DNA of 64,000 bases from Microcoleus sp. (GCA_042408215.1 JAYFMW010000006.1:1018659-1082658); one strand, 5' to 3'. Shown: positions 12,517-46,391, counted from the first letter of the stretch. Translations and numbers: made by a program. Notes: generated from the sequence alone by a model not told the origin.

Positions 12517-12815
12517 GTCAATCACCCACCGCTAATCGGAGTACCGATATAGCGGGGGCAAGAAATTCGCCTAGTTGACCAGTCTAAGTAAGAGAACACT
12601 TCGACACTTCGACTACGCGAGCGTGCGACGCTTCGCTCAGTGGAGCCACTTTTACTACGTTTAGGGCAAGAGTTAAAGACCTACCAGTGGATGCGAAGCT
12701 AGTCCACTGCTCTAGAACTCAGAAGTTAAACAGGCTTAAGGGTTAAACCAGTGCTTTTGAGATAGTTACCGACCTTAAACATTGACGAAGCTAACATTAC
12801 CCCGCAAGGGAGGAC
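12517..12815 (+). ncRNA. IscB omegaRNA (HEARO-like) scaffold
   Basis: Closely similar to the reverse complement of 46144-46391 (GTTGACCAGTCTAAG, ACTACGTT, CATTGACGAAGC, TTACCCCGCAAGGGAG). Confidence 0.8.
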
Positions 12816-37860: not shown

Positions 37861-38007
37861 TTAAAGCCCCGTCCTTCTAGGACGGCTTTTCTTTAATTTG
37901 CTAATTAATTCTCTCAGTAGATCATTTTAAGTACGTATTGTCTGGGTGCAATACTCCATGAGTATCTCGTACTCCTCATCTTAGGATCTAATTGTTAATT
38001 TTTTCAT
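37861..38007 (-). pseudogene. Degraded small RHH/CopG-like gene
   Basis: Manual translation MKKLTIRS*DEEYEILMEYCTQTIRT*NDLLRELISKL… has two in-frame stops. Confidence 0.55.
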
Positions 38008-38045
38008 GCCGTCATATCGCCGTTGATTTGTGATATAATACTAGC

Positions 38046-39170
38046 ATGAAAACACTGAAGTTTAAGTTGTACGAACACAAGCGGAATAAACACCTCAAGC
38101 GGATGATTAACGCCGCAGCGGTGATTTATAACCATTGTATTGCTCTACATAAACGGTACTACCGAATGTGGGGCAAGCACTTGAGTTGTGCAAAAATTCA
38201 GTCTCATATTGCCAAGTTGAGAAAACGTAATCCATTTTGGCAATCGGTCGGTTCTCAGGCAGTACAGGACATCTGTCAACGCATTGAGAAAGCCTATAAA
38301 CTGTTCTTTAAGCACCAGAATAAAAAAGTTAGACCGCCCAACTTTAAGAAAGTTAGACGATACAAATCGTTCACTTTAAAACAAGCTGGCTACAAATTAT
38401 TAGGTGGCAACCGGATCGAGATTGGAAATCGTGTCTATCAGTATTGGAACACTAGAGCCATTGAGGGAACGGTCAAGACCTTGACTATTAAGCGCACGAC
38501 CTTAGGAGAGTTGTTTATGGTCATCGTTGTAGACAGCGTTAATGAACCTAAAACCAAATTCGAGACGAGTAGAATCGCTGGATTTGATTTTGGTTTGAAA
38601 ACGTTTCTCACCTGTTCAGATGGTTCCAAGATTAAATCACCGCAATTTCTGAAACAATCGCTCAATGCCATCAAGAAGGCGAGTCGCAATCATTCCAAGA
38701 AACGGAAAGGTTCCTCCAATCGTGAACGAGCTAGAAAAAACTTAGTTCGTAAACATGAAGATATTTGTAACCGCAGACGTGATTGGTTCTGGAAATTAGC
38801 TCAACAATTGACAGACAAGTTTGATGTTTTATTTTTTGAAACCCTAAATCTTAAGGGAATGCAACGTCTTTGGGGTAGAAAAATATCAGACTTGGCTTTT
38901 GGTGAATTTCTGCAAATCCTCGAATGGGTAGCAACGAAGAAAGGGAAGCAGGTTGTTTTCATCGACAGATGGTATCCATCCTCTAAGACTTGTTCGCACT
39001 GTGGGCAAGTCTTAAAAGAATTAGCGATAGATGTGCGTGAATGGCGTTGTCCGTCCTGTCAGTCAGTGAACGGCAGAGACGAAAACGCTGCTATAAATAT
39101 TCAAATGGTTGGGGCATCAACCATTGGGTTAGGTGATGTTAGACGGGCTACGCCCGCAGTTACTGTTTGA
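38046..39170 (+). CDS. tnpB: TnpB RNA-guided endonuclease
   Basis: GFDFG, FETLNL, CSHC…CPSC, GRDENAAINI. Confidence 0.9.
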   Translation: MKTLKFKLYEHKRNKHLKRMINAAAVIYNHCIALHKRYYRMWGKHLSCAKIQSHIAKLRKRNPFWQSVGSQAVQDICQRIEKAYKLFFKHQNKKVRPPNFKKVRRYKSFTLKQAGYKLLGGNRIEIGNRVYQYWNTRAIEGTVKTLTIKRTTLGELFMVIVVDSVNEPKTKFETSRIAGFDFGLKTFLTCSDGSKIKSPQFLKQSLNAIKKASRNHSKKRKGSSNRERARKNLVRKHEDICNRRRDWFWKLAQQLTDKFDVLFFETLNLKGMQRLWGRKISDLAFGEFLQILEWVATKKGKQVVFIDRWYPSSKTCSHCGQVLKELAIDVREWRCPSCQSVNGRDENAAINIQMVGASTIGLGDVRRATPAVTV

Positions 39171-39276
39171 CCCCAGAATCCCCACTCTTCTAGGGCGGGG
39201 AGTATGTCAATTGCTAACTTTCAGTAAAGCCGTCCTCCGCTTCGCTAGAGGACGGGGTTTCAAACCCAAATTTCTG

Positions 39277-40194
39277 ATGAATGAGACTAAGGCGATCAAA
39301 ATTGCGGTGGTGGGGGATGTTCACGATCAGTGGGAAGCGGAAGACGGCGAGGCGCTGCTGCGTCTAGGCGTTGATTTGGTGCTGTTTGTGGGGGATTTTG
39401 GGAATGAGTCGGTGGAGGTGGTGCGGGCGATCGCCCAATTGGACATTCCGAAAGCAGCGGTATTTGGGAACCACGACGCTTGGTACACGGCGACGGATTG
39501 GGGCAGAAGTCAATGCCCCTACGATCGCACTCAAGAGAATCGGGTGAAACAGCAGTTAGATTTAATGGGGGAAGCTCACGTCGGTTACGGGAAGCGGGAT
39601 TTTCCAGAATTGGGAGTAACTGTGGTAGGAAGTCGCCCGTTTACTTGGGGGGGATCGGAGTGGAAGTACGCGGATTTTTACTCGGAGTGGTTTGGGGTGG
39701 AGAGTTTTGAGGAGTCGGCCAGACGCATTGCACTTTCGGCTGCGGACGCGGACTGCGAAAATGTGATTTTTTTGGGTCACACAGGCCCGACGGGCTTGGG
39801 AGAGGCTCCTGAAGACCCCTGCGGGCGAGATTGGAAGCCACTGGGAGGGGATTGGGGCGACCCAGATTTTGCGGTGGCGATCGACAAAACTCGTAATTCT
39901 GGCAAGCAGGTACCTCTGGTAACTTTTGGTCATATGCACCACAAACTGCGGCACATAAAGAAGGAGTTGCGGAAGTCGCTAAGTGTGAGTGCGGAGGGTA
40001 CGGTTTATTTGAATGCGGCCAGCGTACCGCGAATTGTGGACAGAGACTGCTCGAAACTGCGAAATTTCTCGATCGTGCTGCTGGAAGCTGGAGTAGTGTC
40101 GGAAGTGTCTCTGGTTTGGGTTGGGGGGGATTTTGCTGTGGAAAGAGAACAAATTCTGTATCGGCGTGCTGAATCTGCAACTGCTTGTGGTTAG
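39277..40194 (+). CDS. Metallophosphoesterase (TIGR04168-like)
   Basis: GDVH, GDFG, GNHD and FGHMH motifs. The original first four codons lie at 35829-35840. Confidence 0.85.
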   Translation: MNETKAIKIAVVGDVHDQWEAEDGEALLRLGVDLVLFVGDFGNESVEVVRAIAQLDIPKAAVFGNHDAWYTATDWGRSQCPYDRTQENRVKQQLDLMGEAHVGYGKRDFPELGVTVVGSRPFTWGGSEWKYADFYSEWFGVESFEESARRIALSAADADCENVIFLGHTGPTGLGEAPEDPCGRDWKPLGGDWGDPDFAVAIDKTRNSGKQVPLVTFGHMHHKLRHIKKELRKSLSVSAEGTVYLNAASVPRIVDRDCSKLRNFSIVLLEAGVVSEVSLVWVGGDFAVEREQILYRRAESATACG

Positions 40195-40228
40195 AGACAA
40201 CTACTGGTATGATAGATTTCATGCACCG

Positions 40229-40315
40229 GGAGAGGTGGCAGAGTGGTCGAATGCGCTCGGCTTGAAACCGAGTGTGGCAGTGATGTCACCGTGGGTTCAA
40301 ATCCCACCCTCTCCG
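40229..40315 (+). tRNA. tRNA-Ser(TGA)
   Basis: GGAGAGG/CCTCTCC acceptor stem, CTCGG-CTTGAAA-CCGAG anticodon arm, long variable arm, GGTTCAAATCC T-arm, G73. Confidence 0.95.
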
Positions 40316-40423
40316 TTTTTAGGAAACTGCCTGATTTTTGGGCGATCGCAACTTGGTCAGACACACCTGATTTCAATTGACAGCCGTAAAGGTCAGGAGT
40401 TGATCGCTCAAACTCCCCTCCAC

Positions 40424-41836
40424 TCAAATAACTCCAATTGCTGGAACTATCTTAGGGTTCCCAGGCTCACCCACCAACGCGGATGATTTTCCCTGTCTTC
40501 CAACAGGCTCCTCGGGCGTAGTTTTATCCTGTTTCCGAGGGACTCTCGGTACAGCATCCAAATAGATTCCCAGTCGATTCAGGCCACGCTGCAAAATAAC
40601 TTTTGCAGCATCCACATCGGCATCCTCATGATGGCCGCACTCTTCGCAGATAAATTTCTCTTGATCTCGATTTGTGGGACTGATATACCCGCACTCGCTG
40701 CATTCCTGAGAGCTAAAGTGAGGCATCGCTTCATAAACCAGAACGCCCGCCCTGTCGGACAAAATCTTGACTTTCTGTTTTAAGGAACCCCAAGCAGCAT
40801 CAGTAATGGCTTTGTTCAGTCCAGATTTAGCAGACTGACCGTTAGGCAGATACTTTCCGTTTTCATCCTGCTTTGGTTTGCAGCGTGCCATCATGCCTTG
40901 AATATTCAGATTCTCGAACACAATCAGATCGAATTGCTTCACCAAGTTATTAGCTATCTTCCATTGGTAATCCTCTCGTCGATTGGCAACTTTTTGTTCC
41001 AGTCTGGCTAAGCGCTGACAGGCTTTTCTGCGACGGCGGGAACCTAAAACCTTGCGGCTGACAGCACGGTTTAGTTGCGATCGCTTCCGCTCCATCTGTT
41101 GATAAAATCTGGGATTGGCAATGGTTTGTCCCGTACTGAGAGACATTAGCTTCTTGATACCCAGATCTACTCCTACTGCTGTTTTAACTTGATTTGCTGC
41201 TGGAATATCTGGAACAGACTCATCTTGCAACAAAACAGAAATATAAAAGCCATCTGCTTTTTTCCGAACAGTGACGGAACGAATGCTGAAAGCATTGGGA
41301 AACAGTCGGGACTGAAAAAACGACATCCAGCCAATACCGGGAAGTCGAACTTTATTCCCTTTAAAGGCGACATCTCCAGGCGGGTAGGTGAAAGAGCGAA
41401 ATTTACCCTGCCGCTTTGTTTTCGGATATTTGCCCAATCCTCGGAAAAAGCGCCCAAAAGCAGCATCAACCTGTTTCAGCATTTGTTGCAAAACATGGTG
41501 ATAGATTTCTCTATACCAAGGACGCTCCTGCTTCAGGTCAACCAGATTGGCATCTTGTTGAGCCAGCGGAGTCCTTTTCTTGCCTTTTGCTGTCCAAGGA
41601 TAGCCGTACAAAGCACCTTTGCTTAACGAGCAAGCGAAAGGGCAACACTCGGCTTGAGTTTCGATGAAGCAGTAGTTCCCCATAACAGGAAATCTTGCTT
41701 GCTCGTAGGCTTCTGTCCGCTCTCTGACTCTGAAATTGTACTGCAAGCGGAGCAAATGAATCCACCGCTCGATTGTTTGAGCTTGTTTGGGCGATGGATT
41801 CAGCTTGTAAACATAAGCAAGCAGCATGACTCTCAA
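40424..41836 (-). CDS. tnpB: TnpB-family nuclease, 9 bp downstream of the KilA-N gene
   Basis: GVDLG, FENLNI, CSEC…CEEC, DADVDAAKVI. Confidence 0.88.
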   Translation of the reverse strand: MRVMLLAYVYKLNPSPKQAQTIERWIHLLRLQYNFRVRERTEAYEQARFPVMGNYCFIETQAECCPFACSLSKGALYGYPWTAKGKKRTPLAQQDANLVDLKQERPWYREIYHHVLQQMLKQVDAAFGRFFRGLGKYPKTKRQGKFRSFTYPPGDVAFKGNKVRLPGIGWMSFFQSRLFPNAFSIRSVTVRKKADGFYISVLLQDESVPDIPAANQVKTAVGVDLGIKKLMSLSTGQTIANPRFYQQMERKRSQLNRAVSRKVLGSRRRRKACQRLARLEQKVANRREDYQWKIANNLVKQFDLIVFENLNIQGMMARCKPKQDENGKYLPNGQSAKSGLNKAITDAAWGSLKQKVKILSDRAGVLVYEAMPHFSSQECSECGYISPTNRDQEKFICEECGHHEDADVDAAKVILQRGLNRLGIYLDAVPRVPRKQDKTTPEEPVGRQGKSSALVGEPGNPKIVPAIGVI

Positions 41837-41845
41837 TTAACTAGG

Positions 41846-42727
41846 CTACTGATTCAGCAGATTAGCAACTTGCTGCGCTGTGGAATGGGAGATGCTAGCG
41901 CATGAGCTCACCCCATTAGGATTAAGCGTGTTGATCCGCTTGGCACTGAGAACTTTGGCAAAATCTGTAGCAGCCAGTTCCTCCATTGTCATGGCATCTT
42001 TGCAGTTTTGTCCTTTTTTCAATCCTCTTGCTGTTCGGAAATCTTCGGTACGGCCAATGATCGGCTGATACACCCTCGCCTTGCACTGAGCAAAGTGCAG
42101 TGGAACCTGAACCCCATGTTCATACAAAGCTGCCTCGTAGAAGTCTTCTTTGGGAATAGAGTCAAGACGGGCTCCAATATATTCACGGCTTTTGCCTTGC
42201 TTTTCCCAATTTTTAACTGCCCTTTGCCGACTACGGCGAACGCCGAGTTCTGGATCTACTTCTTCTTCAATCCTTTCTTTGACAGCATTTCGCGCCCAAT
42301 CACGAAACTCTGTAGACAAGGATTCGGCATATTCGATGGCTATCTTGTCTATGGCATAAGTTCCACCGCCTATACCTCCGCGAGTTGATATCAGACCAAC
42401 ATCTTTAGCTAATTTTCTGACTTGGTTTGCCCAAGCTCTGTATTTTTTACATGCAGAGTTAGCGACTGGTTGTTCTACAAAAGTTCTCTCGACAACGGGT
42501 TTTAACTCAAGCTTAGCTTCAAGGACTAATTCCAACAGCCGTTCACAGATACGCTTCTGTATCAACCACTTATCTAGCTCTTGGGATTTAACAGACCCGG
42601 CAGCTTTCCACATATCGGTCAGGCAGATTAGCCCACCGTTTTGCTGACAATGAATCACTAAACCTTTGTAATTCATGTTCTTACTCCGTAATTTCCCCAT
42701 CGCCAAAAAACCTCCACTAAAATCCAA
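41846..42727 (-). CDS. KilA-N domain protein (antirepressor-like)
   Basis: ICLTDMWKAAG and GGGTYAIDKIAIEYAESLS motifs; start uncertain (42727, 42700 or 42676). Confidence 0.75.
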   Translation of the reverse strand: MDFSGGFLAMGKLRSKNMNYKGLVIHCQQNGGLICLTDMWKAAGSVKSQELDKWLIQKRICERLLELVLEAKLELKPVVERTFVEQPVANSACKKYRAWANQVRKLAKDVGLISTRGGIGGGTYAIDKIAIEYAESLSTEFRDWARNAVKERIEEEVDPELGVRRSRQRAVKNWEKQGKSREYIGARLDSIPKEDFYEAALYEHGVQVPLHFAQCKARVYQPIIGRTEDFRTARGLKKGQNCKDAMTMEELAATDFAKVLSAKRINTLNPNGVSSCASISHSTAQQVANLLNQ

Positions 42728-42880
42728 AACAGTCTTGACATATTTGTGACCGTGTGGTAGTAGCTAAGGGTTGACAAATGTGCTATGATAAAAGCACAAG
42801 AAACTCTAGACCGCAAGAAATTAAATTCTTGCAGCTCAGGTGTATAGCCCAAAGCGACTACCGAGCAAGATCCTTATCTG

Positions 42881-42967
42881 TGGGGATGGTGGGACTCGAA
42901 CCCACAAAAACCCTGGCAGGTTATCCGGTTAGGAGCCGGATGCGTTTTCCAGTTCCGCCACATCCCC
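42881..42967 (-). tRNA. Atypical class II tRNA with CCT (Arg) anticodon
   Basis: GGGGATG/CATCCCC acceptor stem; D arm GCG-GAACTGGAAAA-CGC; TCCGG-CTCCTAA-CCGGA anticodon arm; 18-nt variable region; GTGGG-TTCGAGT-CCCAC T-arm; A73. Confidence 0.85.
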
Positions 42968-43085
42968 AAGTAGAATGCAGCGGCGATACTTTGAATTAGG
43001 AACTCAAAGCATCGTCGCTGTTTGTTAACGGAGAAAATATCATTTGCGGTGTCATCATCGTGTTGCTCGCATTATTTGACTCTGA

Positions 43086-43682
43086 TTATTCGTTGCACAA
43101 ATTTGAAGCATAAAGATTTCGACCAAGCTTTTTCCACCTTTTATGTGTCTCTGCGCCCCGACGCAATTCTACGCTCAAGGAGTTTTTGGCTCGCCAAAAT
43201 TCCTCTTCAGATTCCGCGTCAAATATAGCTTCGACAATCCGATCGGCTAGCATTGGCTCTTGATGAGCATTCAAAACCTTTTCTATGGATTCTGCAAAGG
43301 TCAGCCCCAGGTACTGAGGACGCTTTATCTCCACAGGGTTACGCTGATGTCTGTTTTGAGAGATTGCTTTTTCAAGACCTGCATCTTCAAAAGCAAAACT
43401 AACATTGGCTAGGCCTCCTTTTAGATGTTCCTCTGCACCAAGAGAACTTGTCGAAGCTACTTGACTCTCATTCAAAGTCAGTGTTTCTGTTTCGGAAACC
43501 ACATCTGTAGGTTTTGATGCCACTTCATCAGGAGCTACCTGCGCCAGCGTACTCTCGTAATAAAGAATACTTTCTTTTAGTTGTACAGCTTTCGCTTGTA
43601 CTTCAGCAAGTTCTGACTTCTGCTGGTCAATTTGCTCTGTGAGCCATTTGACGAGCTGTTCGCGGGCAAGATCCTGTGCCAT
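43086..43682 (-). CDS. Coiled-coil + putative winged-helix protein
   Basis: N-terminal heptad pattern; C-terminal AESIEKVL…MLADRIVEAIF…SLSVELRRG…WKKLGRNLY. Confidence 0.65.
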   Translation of the reverse strand: MAQDLAREQLVKWLTEQIDQQKSELAEVQAKAVQLKESILYYESTLAQVAPDEVASKPTDVVSETETLTLNESQVASTSSLGAEEHLKGGLANVSFAFEDAGLEKAISQNRHQRNPVEIKRPQYLGLTFAESIEKVLNAHQEPMLADRIVEAIFDAESEEEFWRAKNSLSVELRRGAETHKRWKKLGRNLYASNLCNE

Positions 43683-43869
43683 AGCTCCTAAAATTTTCTG
43701 TGCTTCTCAGAAGATCACACAACAAAACAAATTTAGGAACAAAAAAAAGAAAAGAATGTAAAAAATTCTCGGTTCTTAAATCACATTACATACCGCTGCG
43801 AGTTCCCACCAAAAAAAACACCCCGCAGAGGTGCTTTTGCCTACCAAATAATCTGTCAGGTCAACTGAC

Positions 43870-44193
43870 TTAACTAAACCCTTCCTCATCCGCTGGGTCT
43901 CCGTATGGGTCTTCACTGGCTGGGAGGACATCTCCAAACTGCCCAGCATCCGCTACGTAGTGTGCCGGGTCTCCATAGGGGTCTTCGCTGGCCGGGCGGA
44001 CGTTAGCGAACTGTCCAGAATCCGCGTAGTCGGCCGGGTCGCCCAGGGGGTCTTCGCTGGCCGGGCGGACCTTGCCGAACTGTCCAGAATCTGGGGGACG
44101 ATCGTAGTTGTCTTCATCCTCAGAAGATCTTGAATTTTCGTTTTCCGGCCCGACGATCGCATCTTTCAATTTTCGCAAAAAACTGTCTACCAT
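43870..44193 (-). CDS. Small acidic repeat protein
   Basis: Three GQF.xV.PASEDP[LY]GDPA repeats. Confidence 0.75.
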   Translation of the reverse strand: MVDSFLRKLKDAIVGPENENSRSSEDEDNYDRPPDSGQFGKVRPASEDPLGDPADYADSGQFANVRPASEDPYGDPAHYVADAGQFGDVLPASEDPYGDPADEEGFS

Positions 44194-44301
44194 GATTAAT
44201 TTCCTCTGGTTTATTAGCTAAAAAAACGGCTGTTTGAGATGGGAAATGCCAGATGTAATAGAAAATCTTAAATCATCCATCTAAAAGCTGAAATAGTTTG
44301 G

Positions 44302-44802
44302 TTACAGTGCCGGAACAGGAGTTGTAGCTTCCGGCAAGCTAGTGAGGTCTTTACCTGTAGTTTGGTTGTTGTACCCCTGGAATTCGCGGTAACGCGATGC
44401 TTCCGACTCCGGCACTTTAATGCCTTCTGGTGGCGGCGTTACCCAGTGAGCTCGTTTCTGGGCGTCGCGGTAGTAAACGCGGCCGTTTTTGGAAAGGTAA
44501 TATTGCCCCTGCGGCCCCTGTTCTTGTTTATTTTTGTGCTGATTGTAGAGGTAGTAAAGGGCGGCTGCTCCTACTAAAGTAATCGCTACTTTTTGAGTAT
44601 TGCTCAGTCCTTGTTTCGCTTGGGGCGAAGGACTGGAGGTACGATTTGCGGGCGCTCCAGCGCGAGTATCATCTACTGGGGGCGGGGGAGCAGAATTTTG
44701 CTGGCTGGAACCGCAAGCAGTGACAAAGGGAAATGTGAGCAGCGTTGTCAGCAGCAGTGCCATGAAGCGCGAGCTTCTTGGTTCCGGGTAAACTTGATTC
44801 AT
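44302..44802 (-). CDS. Putative lipoprotein
   Basis: Lipobox FVTAC, internal hydrophobic helix, YYLSKNGRVYYRD. Confidence 0.75.
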   Translation of the reverse strand: MNQVYPEPRSSRFMALLLTTLLTFPFVTACGSSQQNSAPPPPVDDTRAGAPANRTSSPSPQAKQGLSNTQKVAITLVGAAALYYLYNQHKNKQEQGPQGQYYLSKNGRVYYRDAQKRAHWVTPPPEGIKVPESEASRYREFQGYNNQTTGKDLTSLPEATTPVPAL

Positions 44803-46391
44803 CTGTCTTCCCCCTTGGAGACTCCCACTGTACCTGTACCCTGGTCAGTGGCGAGAGGAAAAGGGAGGCAAGGTTTATGCTGCATACGAATAACCATCCT
44901 TTCGGTGAACAACTGAACAATATTTGTGACTAATTCCCGATACCAATTCGGATGCGGAAATATTAAATGAACCACTCGTTCTTACGGCAACAGATCCAAC
45001 GTATTTACCAATTTTCTTGCCGGAGGTTACAATCGCTTTAACGATATCTCCCGTTTGAAAACCTTTGACAAACTTAAACCTAGGGACATAGCAAGATGGA
45101 AATCCAAACTTATCGGTACGACACATTTGACCTGTCCCATGCCCAGTCGCTTTAATTAACAATGGCTTGTTTGTTAATATTTCCAACGAATCAACGTTCC
45201 CAACACAAGCTGCATCTAACCAGTGAGTTTTAGCTAAATTCAATCGAGTGCGGTTGAACTTTGTTAGGCCACCACTGCCAGTAGAAACTGGTAAGCCAGT
45301 CATAGGGAGTCGGTTAAATAATGCCCAACGAGTCGAATTAACGGCTGTCGCGTCTTTGAGAGGACGATGAGCTTGAGATAGAATCCGCTTCAAAATCTCT
45401 GGCTTTTTAGAGAGGAATTGCTCAATACCTTGAGTTCCTTTCTTTTTATTACATCTTTCGCAAGCAAGGCAAAGATTAGAAATGCGATTAGAACCACCCT
45501 TAGCTTTAGGATGAATATGTTCGACTTGTAATGGTGTATTTGTAACACCACAATACGCGCACTTTCTATCCCACTTATTGAGCAAGTATTCCCGAACCTC
45601 GTAGCCACATAAAACACCTTGCTGATATTCGATTCCAGAAATCTCTGGATTTTCTAATTGTTGTAAGTCAAACCGTACAAGTTCTTGAATAATCGAGGCA
45701 ATAGGGGCGAGCTTCATCAATCTAGTTACCCAGGTTAGGGTTGTTTCGACACGATGTTGCAAGCTGGGAGCCAGCCACCCTTTAGGGCGAGTCCTATTTA
45801 GGAACCTCGCTTGACGATAGCGAGTATGACGATTTCTCCTACCTCTACGCAATGAACGGCGAGACTCCAAACTGGCTTTGATTGTTTGACCGGGCGTGAG
45901 TTAGTTCTGCACCAAAGATTACGTCCTCTCCTTGCACTAATGCGATTCCTGTAGTCTTAGAACCCGGATCTATTTTAAGAGTGATTGGTTTTTGGGTTGC
46001 TGTCACCTCTACTTTGAGAATTAGTGTGAATGGATACCTTTTGAAAACAGCAGCTTTGCCATTGTTTAGCAATTTACGAGCCAATCCCGGATTGGATTGA
46101 GCGGTTGTTTTCTGGTATCAAGTACAAAAACAAAATTAGACATTTCAGCCCTCCCTTGCGGGGTAATGTTTGCTTCGTCAATGTTTAAGGTCGGTAACTA
46201 TATTAAAAGCACTGGCTTAACCCTTACACCTGTTTAACTTTTAATTTCTAGAGCAGAAAACTAGCACGCATTTTCTGGTAGGTACTTTAACGCTTACCTT
46301 AAACGTAGTGGGCGAACCACTTAGACTGGTCAACTTGGCGAATTTCTTGCCTGCACCGTATCGGTAATCCGATCGGTGCCGGGTTGTTGAC
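44803..46391 (-). mobile_element. Non-autonomous IscB element #3 with omegaRNA (46144-46391)
   Basis: Minus strand starts GTCAACAACCC; scaffold is homologous to element #1; ends directly before ATGA of the lipoprotein gene. Confidence 0.8.
44875..46143 (-). pseudogene. iscB: IscB with two N-terminal frameshifts
   Basis: Frameshifts near 46090 and 45893; HNH and RuvC motifs otherwise intact. Confidence 0.85.

Follow-up and report, generated by a model that had tools for sequence, protein, structure and literature searches.

In insertion sequences (ISs) of the IS200/IS605 type, such as ISDra2 and IS608, the RNA-guided nuclease TnpB carries a RuvC domain and a zinc finger, the scaffold of its guide RNA, the omegaRNA, lies over the 3' end of the tnpB gene, and the element closes with a ...TCAA end; according to the portion of a review that deals with these proteins (PMC13565253), TnpB acts as a homing nuclease that restores the transposon. 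Two further kinds of TnpB descendants bear on what follows. The TldR regulators, as far as the accounts at hand describe them, lack a transposon context, have a fixed and conserved guide, and keep synteny with a host gene, while the type V-K CRISPR-associated transposons (CASTs; CRISPR, short palindromic repeats that are clustered and regularly interspaced) are cyanobacterial elements whose Cas12k is also derived from TnpB and which, in the part of the report available (10.1101/2021.02.06.429022), sit just downstream of a tRNA gene that their guide matches. Here we describe a tnpB gene that lies beside a tRNA-Ser(UGA) gene in a 64,000-nucleotide stretch of Microcoleus sp. DNA (GCA_042408215.1 JAYFMW010000006.1:1018659-1082658; hereafter the window), together with its three neighbors: a gene for a KilA-N protein, a class II tRNA with the anticodon CCU, called tRNA(CCU) below, and the open reading frame (ORF) ORF198. 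The block they form is probably a mosaic in which two independent mobile units have met by chance at a hot spot for islands, the tRNA-Ser(UGA) gene: the first is a TnpB/omegaRNA unit locked to tRNA-Ser (window 40319 to about 41840) and the second a cargo module (about 41846 to 43790).

All four units lie in the same direction, on the minus strand, and converge on the plus-strand tRNA-Ser(UGA) (40229..40315; ARAGORN, Rfam), the resident allele A, which has the anticodon stem CTCGG/CCGAG and CGGC before U33. This arrangement had been noticed in an original prediction made from the sequence of the window, and gene calls, ARAGORN, Rfam and Pfam bear it out. When window 39000-45000 was compared with 40 relatives and the loci were aligned, most same-genus genomes had an empty site, in which tRNA-Ser is joined straight to window 43788-43812. 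Because the empty sites join tRNA-Ser to about 43790, their homology ending at 40318 and resuming at 43788-43812, the block is read as a 3.46-kb insertion that runs from window 40319 to about 43790, and the prediction was right to see an island remnant beside tRNA-Ser. Next to the tRNA comes a spacer (40316..40354, minus strand), which contains the left boundary of the island (40318/40319) and reaches to a guide-like segment (40355..40376, minus strand); this is followed by an omegaRNA-like scaffold (40377..40504, minus strand), which overlaps the 3' end of tnpB and closes with GTCAA at 40381-40377, and by tnpB itself (40424..41827, minus strand).

The tnpB product has 467 amino acids (aa) from its ATG, with an alternative TTG start at 41836, and matches OrfB_IS605 (87.9 bits against a cutoff of 30.5), Cas12f1-like_TNB (55.6 against 26.3) and HTH_OrfB_IS605 in Pfam, as well as guided_TnpB in NCBIfam (245 bits against a cutoff of 100). 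Alignment to ISDra2 TnpB (8bf8/8exa) identifies the catalytic residues as the D of VGVDLG, the E of VFENL and the D of DADVDAA, and the zinc-finger cysteines as those of CSEC and CEEC; the RuvC D/E/D triad is intact, as the prediction had stated, and both CxxC pairs align as well. All TnpB homologues begin at the ATG equivalent to 41827 (MLL...), 18 nt past the KilA-N stop at 41848-41846, and the 9 bp originally given for this distance applies to the TTG start. The related claim, that no IS left-end hairpin fits between the two genes, holds: only 9-18 nt lie there, and no locked copy was found to be preceded by the left end that its nearest IS relatives have, the space upstream of tnpB being only about 100 nt in G614 and 36 nt in G069. 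The gene is single-copy in its genome, where about 150 TnpB matches occur and the nearest paralogues reach 46-48% identity.

An order-level search, a family-level search around G069 and a metagenome scan recovered orthologues of 76-83% identity in six genomes (G581, G614, G069, G874, G877, G906) and on two metagenome contigs (L233, L234). At all eight loci, which belong to other cyanobacterial families, the ORF is intact, is placed between an unrelated host gene and the conserved metallophosphoesterase-tRNA-Ser(UGA) pair, and is convergent with the tRNA. Homologues at 59-66% identity are of another kind, namely ordinary IS605-type copies, with TnpA upstream (L208, L210) or present as three identical copies in one genome (G665). 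Their right ends read, for example, ...GGGGAGCCGTCAA or ...TCTTCAA, after which unrelated DNA begins, and TGAC stands directly before the left end of related IS copies at five of five insertion sites. IS608 has TTAC on its left and TCAA on its right; it is from the IS left flanks and the analogy with IS608 that TGAC is taken here as the target motif and as the transposon-adjacent motif (TAM). In the window copy, a second GTCAA, at 40381-40377, is homologous to the right end of related IS copies, and the terminal AATCCCC hairpin is reduced. The AATCCCC…GGGGAG…TCAA end reported as lacking from the 3' region is absent only as to its AATCCCC arm, GGGGAG...TCAA being present just past the tnpB stop.

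Several copies in varied contexts, each with the local flank as its guide, are what would mark an IS, and the locked TnpB does not show them. Unlike IS200/IS605 elements, it has no left end and no TnpA, is single-copy, carries a fixed guide that is conserved across families, and always adjoins the gene that its guide resembles. That TnpB is domesticated, as originally proposed, therefore stands in part: with no left end found, a single, intact copy under purifying selection, and a fixed locus, it is no longer an ordinary IS, but its conserved partner is tRNA-Ser(UGA) and not KilA-N or the odd tRNA.

The guide-equivalent segment of the window, TTGAAATCAGGTGTGTCTGACC, lies directly 3' of the GTCAA end and copies positions 33-45 of tRNA-Ser(UGA), which begin at U33 and take in the 3' strand of the anticodon stem. 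In the 15 locked copies whose junction could be read, the end, which is GTCAA, GTCGA or ATCAA, is followed by the invariant TTGAAATC and then by RRR-Y/A-G-like variable bases; the copy on L175 in G491 has no guide motif at its junction. The first 8 nt of the segment are invariant in all members of the clade, bases beyond position 14 are free, and in G581 and G614 the segment agrees with tRNA-Ser at 13 of 14 nt. The guide sequence follows TGAC in those tRNA-Ser alleles whose stem is CCUGA. Since the guide-like segment is absent from empty sites, it travels with the element, unlike the guide of a canonical omegaRNA. As for the scaffold, an alignment of 11 loci, together with the homology to IS605-type right ends, defines it: three hairpins are kept, and of the 28 predicted pairs 8 have compensatory changes. 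A search of Rfam at E <= 1 over 40200-43100 returned the two tRNAs, two sub-threshold chance matches, and no omegaRNA family. A second guide match in the genome, 15/16 at C3:287682, has neither TnpB nor TGAC nearby and was set aside as chance.

These features allow a working model for unit 1, which would descend from an IS605-type element, its relatives having a TGAC left flank and a GTCAA right end, through loss of the left end and the carriage of a fixed guide of its own. The TnpB-omegaRNA complex would cut tRNA-Ser genes that have TGAC and a matching anticodon arm, and the tRNA-Ser copy beside the element would escape because its TAM or seed has changed. Where a polyploid cyanobacterium repaired the cut from a copy that bears the element, the immune tRNA allele and the element would be converted together; this would be homing, with no need of TnpA, and loss of the element would be punished, as in addiction. 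The logic proposed here is that of free-standing homing endonucleases such as SegB of phage T4, in which a conserved gene near the enzyme's own insertion site is cut in naive genomes, immunity comes from polymorphism, and spread from co-conversion; SegB cleaves tRNA genes, according to the relevant passage of the review (PMC13565253). These endonucleases, however, are protein-guided GIY-YIG enzymes of phages, whereas the locked TnpB would be RNA-guided and would act in a bacterial chromosome. That unit 1 is such a site-locked, guide-carrying homing or addiction nuclease is a distinct possibility to which we give somewhat less than an even chance.

The tRNA-Ser genes of the hosts bear on this model directly. 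The resident tRNA differs from the guide in each genome, either because TGAC has become CGGC or CGAC, or by at least 2 mismatches at guide positions 9-12, and in the genome of the window no site flanked by TGAC comes as close as 3 mismatches to the 16-nt guide. The anticodon arm could be typed in 71 of the 79 Microcoleus genomes, which show three alleles. Allele A (CTCGG/CCGAG, CGGC before U33) occurs in 5 genomes, each of which has the element (G000, G243, G021, G482, and G472, where the contig ends inside tnpB). Allele B (CTCGA/TCGAG, CGAC) occurs in 24, with tnpB intact in G010 and G497 and reduced to a remnant in G004. The third allele (CCTGA/TCAGG, TGAC) is found in 42 genomes, among which only G005 and G008 have the element, both with a frameshifted tnpB; these two are also the only TGAC genomes that carry the variable arm of alleles A and B. 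An intact tnpB thus adjoins none of the 42 TGAC alleles as against 6 of the 29 others. All three anticodon stems are fully Watson-Crick and differ at positions 28, 29, 31, 39, 41 and 42, where the TAM and the seed are inferred to lie, and the pattern of alleles, judged from the sequences, fits avoidance of self-targeting.

One alternative would be that unit 1 is an ordinary IS fossil: an IS605-type element would have inserted at TGAC in the anticodon loop of a second, inverted copy of tRNA-Ser, lost its left end, and been inherited vertically with a functionless relic of a guide. TGAC followed by TTGAAATC is the exact outcome of a TnpA-type insertion into the tRNA-Ser anticodon loop, the 31-61 nt from the start of the guide to the intact tRNA are about the length of a tRNA 3' half, the identities of TnpB and of the neighboring gene correlate across hosts so that TnpB tracks host relatedness (r = 0.85), and tnpB is broken in several Microcoleus genomes. 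Yet a functionless relic is not expected to keep an intact 460-aa ORF with a ratio of nonsynonymous to synonymous substitution rates (dN/dS) of 0.06-0.12 across families (within Microcoleus the values are 0.14-0.22), nor 8 invariant guide bases in every lineage while the bases past 14 are free. The fossil reading also sits poorly with a comparison to the adjacent core gene, which at 62-69% amino-acid identity is less conserved than TnpB at 76-83% and which, inside the genus, has a dS about three times as high (0.37-0.41 against 0.13-0.15), and with a patchy distribution, the lineage being present in 5 of 401 genomes of the order sample and in about 11 of 79 Microcoleus genomes. On balance we think it quite unlikely that the unit is a fossil of this kind.

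The identity of successive segments to G000 was compared as well. In G243, G482 and G472 it is 89% for the metallophosphoesterase, 100% for tRNA-Ser, 87-90% for the spacer and 95% for tnpB, and in G005 and G008 it is 97.7%, 93%, 87% and 97.9%, respectively, the divergent patch of these two genomes having the anticodon arm of the tRNA and the guide at its center. Together with the conservation and the dS of TnpB, these profiles point to recombination at the boundary between tRNA and element, and to an element younger than its host genomes.

Another possibility is that the host has domesticated the nuclease as a guardian, which would cut invading DNA that has a tRNA-Ser-like attachment site or gene, or would tune transcription of tRNA-Ser by partial pairing. 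The locus is fixed, the guide conserved and the ORF under purifying selection, resident tRNAs retain a 6-8-nt match to the guide, and the TldR regulators, in the accounts of them at hand, are a precedent for domestication with a fixed guide. Moreover, tRNA-Ser is an island hot spot: a second island separates tRNA-Ser from the TnpB block in G010, G021 and G497 and has left behind a 20-nt copy of the tRNA 3' end. The attachment repeat of that neighboring island, however, consists of the last 20 nt of the tRNA only and does not include the anticodon arm; presence in 5 of the 401 genomes of the order sample is very patchy for a host function; and a dS below that of the flanking gene points to horizontal movement. 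The nuclease also differs from TldRs, in which, by the same accounts, RuvC is inactivated and promoters are the targets, in that its D/E/D residues are intact and its guide resembles the body of a tRNA gene. A guardian function is therefore improbable in our estimation.

The type V-K CASTs, although alike in the position beside a tRNA and in the guide, are distinguished from the locked TnpB by their equipment. Window 38000-46000 holds no Tn7 genes, no CRISPR repeat and no protein of the size of Cas12k, and the 467-aa TnpB looks catalytically competent; the only Tn7-like element met, that of LEGE 05292, carries unit 2 and not the locked TnpB.

Of the readings considered, homing or addiction remains the one that we prefer for unit 1, and several observations weigh against it. 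For homing to cross families, the downstream flanks would have to share homology, which they lack. The TAM, the cleavage and the end of the omegaRNA are predictions, TGAC being deduced from the flanks of IS copies and from the analogy with IS608. Some guides, such as TTGAAATCGGGTG, have no match among the tRNA-Ser alleles examined. Kinship confounds the allele pattern, and the 40 other TGAC genomes may be a clade that the element never reached; the frameshift common to G005 and G008, moreover, is a single event. Decay of tnpB has set in at least three times within Microcoleus, in the lineage of G005 and G008, in G491 and in G004. Lastly, the correlation of r = 0.85 can also be explained by an old vertical descent in which the element was lost many times, or by transfer that took place mostly between relatives.

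TnpB is already known as a restorer of transposons, as the ancestor of Cas12 and as a nuclease-dead repressor. If the homing or addiction reading is true, a further fate of the systems called OMEGA (for obligate mobile element-guided activity) would be added to these, that of a catalytically intact TnpB that lacks a transposase and a left end and has a fixed guide derived from a tRNA, and with it a natural and compact RNA-guided homing or addiction element, which could explain how one tRNA came to have three fully compensated anticodon-stem alleles within one genus. No account of a tRNA-locked TnpB was found in the literature searched, within that library. In its most far-reaching form, the proposal becomes one of an allele drive that is guided by RNA and needs no TnpA: hard-wired against the anticodon arm of the essential tRNA-Ser(UGA) gene and situated 60 nt from an immune allele of that gene, the unit would spread or secure its retention by cutting susceptible alleles and would drive compensated diversification of the stem, accompanied by a tRNA(CCU) that may insert Leu at AGG; this combination we hold to be rather unlikely.

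The original prediction had gone in another direction and proposed that the four parts are one operon, possibly a defense, addiction or translation-control system; the KilA-N protein could then be a partner or antitoxin of the domesticated TnpB. The units are indeed co-directional and tightly spaced, contigs from RNA libraries bridge the KilA-N/tnpB junction (X16 record 14, X17 record 24), the KilA-N protein resembles the break-binding DdrC and matches the PADLOC candidate PDC-S13, and a TnpB with a DNA-binding protein has been proposed as a toxin-antitoxin pair, in work cited in the consulted part of the review (PMC13565253). The comparison of genomes speaks against it. The four-part order is confined to Microcoleus, at this one locus, and is decaying there; KilA-N, ORF198 and tRNA(CCU) are absent from all eight TnpB orthologue loci of other families (3-10 kb around each); five relatives of the module (G201, G114, G715, G552, G310) have no TnpB; and G021 and G243 have kept an intact TnpB after loss of the other parts. 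Outside the genus the parts occur separately, and synteny across cyanobacteria shows no conserved linkage of the four, an outcome that the prediction had named as a refutation. As far as such comparisons can tell, the four-part system is not supported, and we consider it very improbable.

The decay of the block within Microcoleus takes several forms. G005 and G008 have in common a 1-nt deletion that frameshifts tnpB; in G005 the KilA-N gene is also frameshifted, the N-terminus of ORF198 is deleted and tRNA(CCU) has the change G53A, and G008 is without window 41981-43503. In G021 and G243 only the intact tnpB is kept, plus 170 bp upstream of it, and in G004 a 278-bp remnant of tnpB is all that remains. 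G491 has an independent frameshift in tnpB, and in G010 a repeat is inserted between tRNA(CCU) and KilA-N. The deletions in G021 and G008, which end at 42015 and 41980, had suggested that the C-terminus of KilA-N might be encoded by an IS left end, a candidate that was rejected on finding that this part aligns to homologues without TnpB.

The separate existence of unit 2 is seen in its relatives, which are few, KilA-N homologues being found in 11 of the 401 genomes sampled across the phylum, in 11 of 144 from the family, and in 6 of the 401 sampled from the order. In G201 and G114 an ORF198-like gene lies directly upstream of the KilA-N homologue, with neither a tRNA nor TnpB. [Phormidium] sp. 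LEGE 05292 (G715) has ORF240, a class II tRNA(CCU) and KilA-N (50% identity) as the cargo of a Tn7-like transposon, where they are the first genes past TnsB, TniB and TniQ and precede MerR and a type I restriction-modification system. G552 has tRNA(CCU), a P63C-domain protein and KilA-N (59%), beside tRNA-Ala(CGC), and an Obscuribacterales contig (L063) has an ORF198-like gene (31%) and the tRNA before the contig ends. Since none of these relatives has TnpB, the conserved unit is taken to be ORF198-(tRNA)-KilA-N. ORF281 of G552 was also considered as a homologue of ORF198 and was discarded, as it had been forced into the alignment and homology was not shown. A scan of IMG/VR with KilA-N gave relatives in 224 of 230 stretches, all of them generic prophage KilA-N domains (25-38% identity, residues 32-157), and no relatives of the module.

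The KilA-N gene (41846..42727, minus strand), whose likely start is the ATG at 42700 (284 aa), encodes a protein with a KilA-N domain (PF04383, 30.1 bits against a gathering cutoff of 23.8, residues 19-150; PHROG 129 at 6e-17) and a helical, DdrC/DinD-like C-terminal half, which matches PDC-S13 (8e-18) and PDC-S22 (3.8e-10) of PADLOC and, weakly, DinD. A structure model with a predicted local distance difference test (pLDDT) score of 89 gave a Foldseek match to Deinococcus DdrC (8u0g_B, E 2.8e-7, probability 1.0), with a template modeling (TM) score of 0.39-0.49 and a root-mean-square deviation of 13-17 Å that probably reflect domain orientation. To judge by the model, the fold may resemble that of DdrC, but the sequence identity is 12-15% and an N-terminal KilA-N domain is added. 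Weak homologues of the C-terminal half (24-29%) occur in small-genome cyanobacteria (about 2 Mb; L032, L034, L036-L038, family f42), and three of these adjoin tRNA-Glu(UUC).

ORF198 (43086..43682, minus strand) belongs to no family in Pfam, PHROGs, PADLOC or NCBIfam. Its model (pLDDT 74.6) begins with a long helix, read as a coiled coil, continues at residues 60-110 with an acidic linker that is disordered, and closes with a putative winged helix, possibly of the HARE-HTH-like type; residues 120-195 are modeled at pLDDT 80-95, and Foldseek matches to winged-helix DNA binders are weak, the best having an E of 0.023. The dN/dS is 0.17-0.40 for the KilA-N gene and 0.5-0.87 for ORF198. Upstream of ORF198 a non-coding stretch (43683..43795, minus strand) leads to the right boundary of the insertion (about 43788-43795), where empty-site homology resumes.

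Between these two genes lies tRNA(CCU) (42880..42967, minus strand; ARAGORN, Rfam), a class II tRNA of 88 nt with a 5-bp variable arm, the discriminator A73 and no encoded CCA, which scores 61.2 bits as an Rfam tRNA. It is the only CCU tRNA of its genome, there being no class I tRNA-Arg(CCU) in G000, and the class I pattern occurs in 2 of 25 Microcoleus genomes as against 8 of 16 genomes of other families. The body is 73% identical to the host tRNA-Leu(UAA) and 62% to tRNA-Arg, with a D arm almost identical to that of tRNA-Leu, and it has no features in common with the canonical cyanobacterial tRNA-Arg(CCU), a class I tRNA of 74-76 nt. Compensatory variation of the acceptor and anticodon stems, around the constant loop CTCCTAA, is seen among the variants of Microcoleus, LEGE 05292, the Obscuribacterales contig and G552; the anticodon pattern played no part in the finding of G552, which came to notice by its KilA-N. 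The anticodon is CCU, and not a leucine anticodon (NAG/YAA), in seven of seven cyanobacterial variants.

In the portion consulted of the survey by Giege and Eriani (PMC9976931), bacterial leucine identity is ascribed to A73, A15-U48, G18G19, A20a and a long variable arm, leucyl-tRNA synthetase (LeuRS) ignoring the anticodon, and bacterial arginine identity to A20, C35, U/G36 and A/G73. tRNA(CCU) carries both published sets: A73, A15-U48, G18G19 and A20a for Leu, and A20, C35, U36 and A73 for Arg, the latter set being present in the Microcoleus, Obscuribacterales and G552 variants, with a U at 20 in that of LEGE 05292. The AGG codons of the module genes fall in conserved Arg/Lys columns, including a tandem AGG-AGG that gives the 'RR' of ORF240 of LEGE 05292, and AGG makes up 3.9 per 1000 codons genome-wide. 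On account of these two findings we lean, tentatively and at slightly below even chances, to Arg decoding rather than to misreading as Leu. Unit 2 travels in other mobile elements, and its tRNA would most likely supply a cognate decoder of AGG in hosts where tRNA-Arg(CCU) is missing.

The contrary view, that tRNA(CCU) is charged with leucine and reads the arginine codon AGG as Leu, as a toxic or regulatory mistranslator on mobile elements, draws on the same molecule. Its tRNA-Leu-like body, with the nearly identical D arm and the determinants just listed, speaks for this view, as does the indifference of LeuRS to the anticodon; for a decoder of Arg it is a point against, as such a body makes Leu charging, and hence misreading of AGG, conceivable. 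Similar class II CCU tRNAs are also met in mobile or defense contexts of four other phyla, one of them inside a cas operon; Blastocatellia, Rhodospirillales, Solirubrobacterales and Thiogranum have such tRNAs. Efficient misreading would nevertheless be costly at 3.9 AGG per 1000 codons, the AGG codons of the flanking module genes are at conserved Arg/Lys positions, and the full bacterial Arg set is also on the tRNA, so that leucine charging appears doubtful. Nematode nev-tRNAs and bacterial anticodon-mismatched tRNAs, as described in the available part of PMC3333845, likewise join a class II tRNA-Leu-like body to a foreign anticodon; tRNA(CCU) differs from the nev-tRNAs in being bacterial, in being borne on mobile elements, in its anticodon CCU, and in the added Arg determinants A20, C35 and U36. 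The literature searched gave no account of a class II tRNA(CCU), and its interest is that nature has here combined the Leu set with the Arg set in one tRNA, carried on mobile elements in hosts without tRNA-Arg(CCU); if charged with Leu, it would be a natural bacterial misreader of a sense codon.

Some further tRNA-like sequences were met. The cas-operon case is on a Blastocatellia contig (L044, 2955-3039, minus strand) from a metagenome-assembled genome (MAG), where the class II CCU tRNA lies between the Cas6 gene and a 600-aa ORF, then Cas7, all on one strand. A single Dehalococcoidia MAG gave 10 matches to the tRNA pattern, all close to the ends of contigs (L047, L056-L058, L068, L070, L073, L083, L084, L092), with no tRNA called by ARAGORN, and these matches are probably a dispersed repeat that breaks the assembly. 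An 84-nt 'tRNA-Gly(ccc)' called by ARAGORN at C3:343815 of G000 is doubtful, about 25 nt of its 3' part recurring on many contigs, and what was called is more likely a piece of some dispersed repeat than a tRNA. A scan of the genome for 12-mers derived from the tRNA gave mostly chance matches and a dispersed repeat, and was set aside.

With respect to expression, a promoter and terminator scan was not informative (0 promoter-like sites, with 4.6 expected from shuffles), and contigs from RNA libraries span the module in four runs, which is a weak hint of expression since DNA carry-over is possible and the contigs give neither strand nor ends. The contig that holds tRNA(CCU) has a mean depth of 14.3 against 2-3.2 for its neighbors in X15, 42.8 against 2-4.9 in X16, and 1050 against 21.5 in X17, values that cannot be used to rank genes.

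Finally, the surroundings of the block contain other mobile or repetitive features. The second island beside tRNA-Ser (in G497, L186 4371-5861, minus strand; also L018 and L019) begins with a 496-aa ORF that has no Pfam family, and a short remnant of the start of this ORF is also present in 'empty' sites. On the other side, the conserved flanking ORF107 (43870-44193, minus strand), likewise without a Pfam family, has internal repeats and gives several overlapping self-like BLAST matches at 43956-44115 in all relatives. IscB-type elements are represented in the window by two of their guide RNAs, known as HEARO RNAs (Rfam RF02033), at 46163-46391 (minus strand, 132 bits) and 12517-12800 (plus strand, 123 bits), the former just upstream of an HNH/IscB-like ORF (45870..44875). 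A second, ordinary TnpB of 374 aa (OrfB_IS605 and TNB) is encoded at 38046-39170 on the plus strand, and the 3' end of its gene overlaps the annotated start of the metallophosphoesterase ORF.

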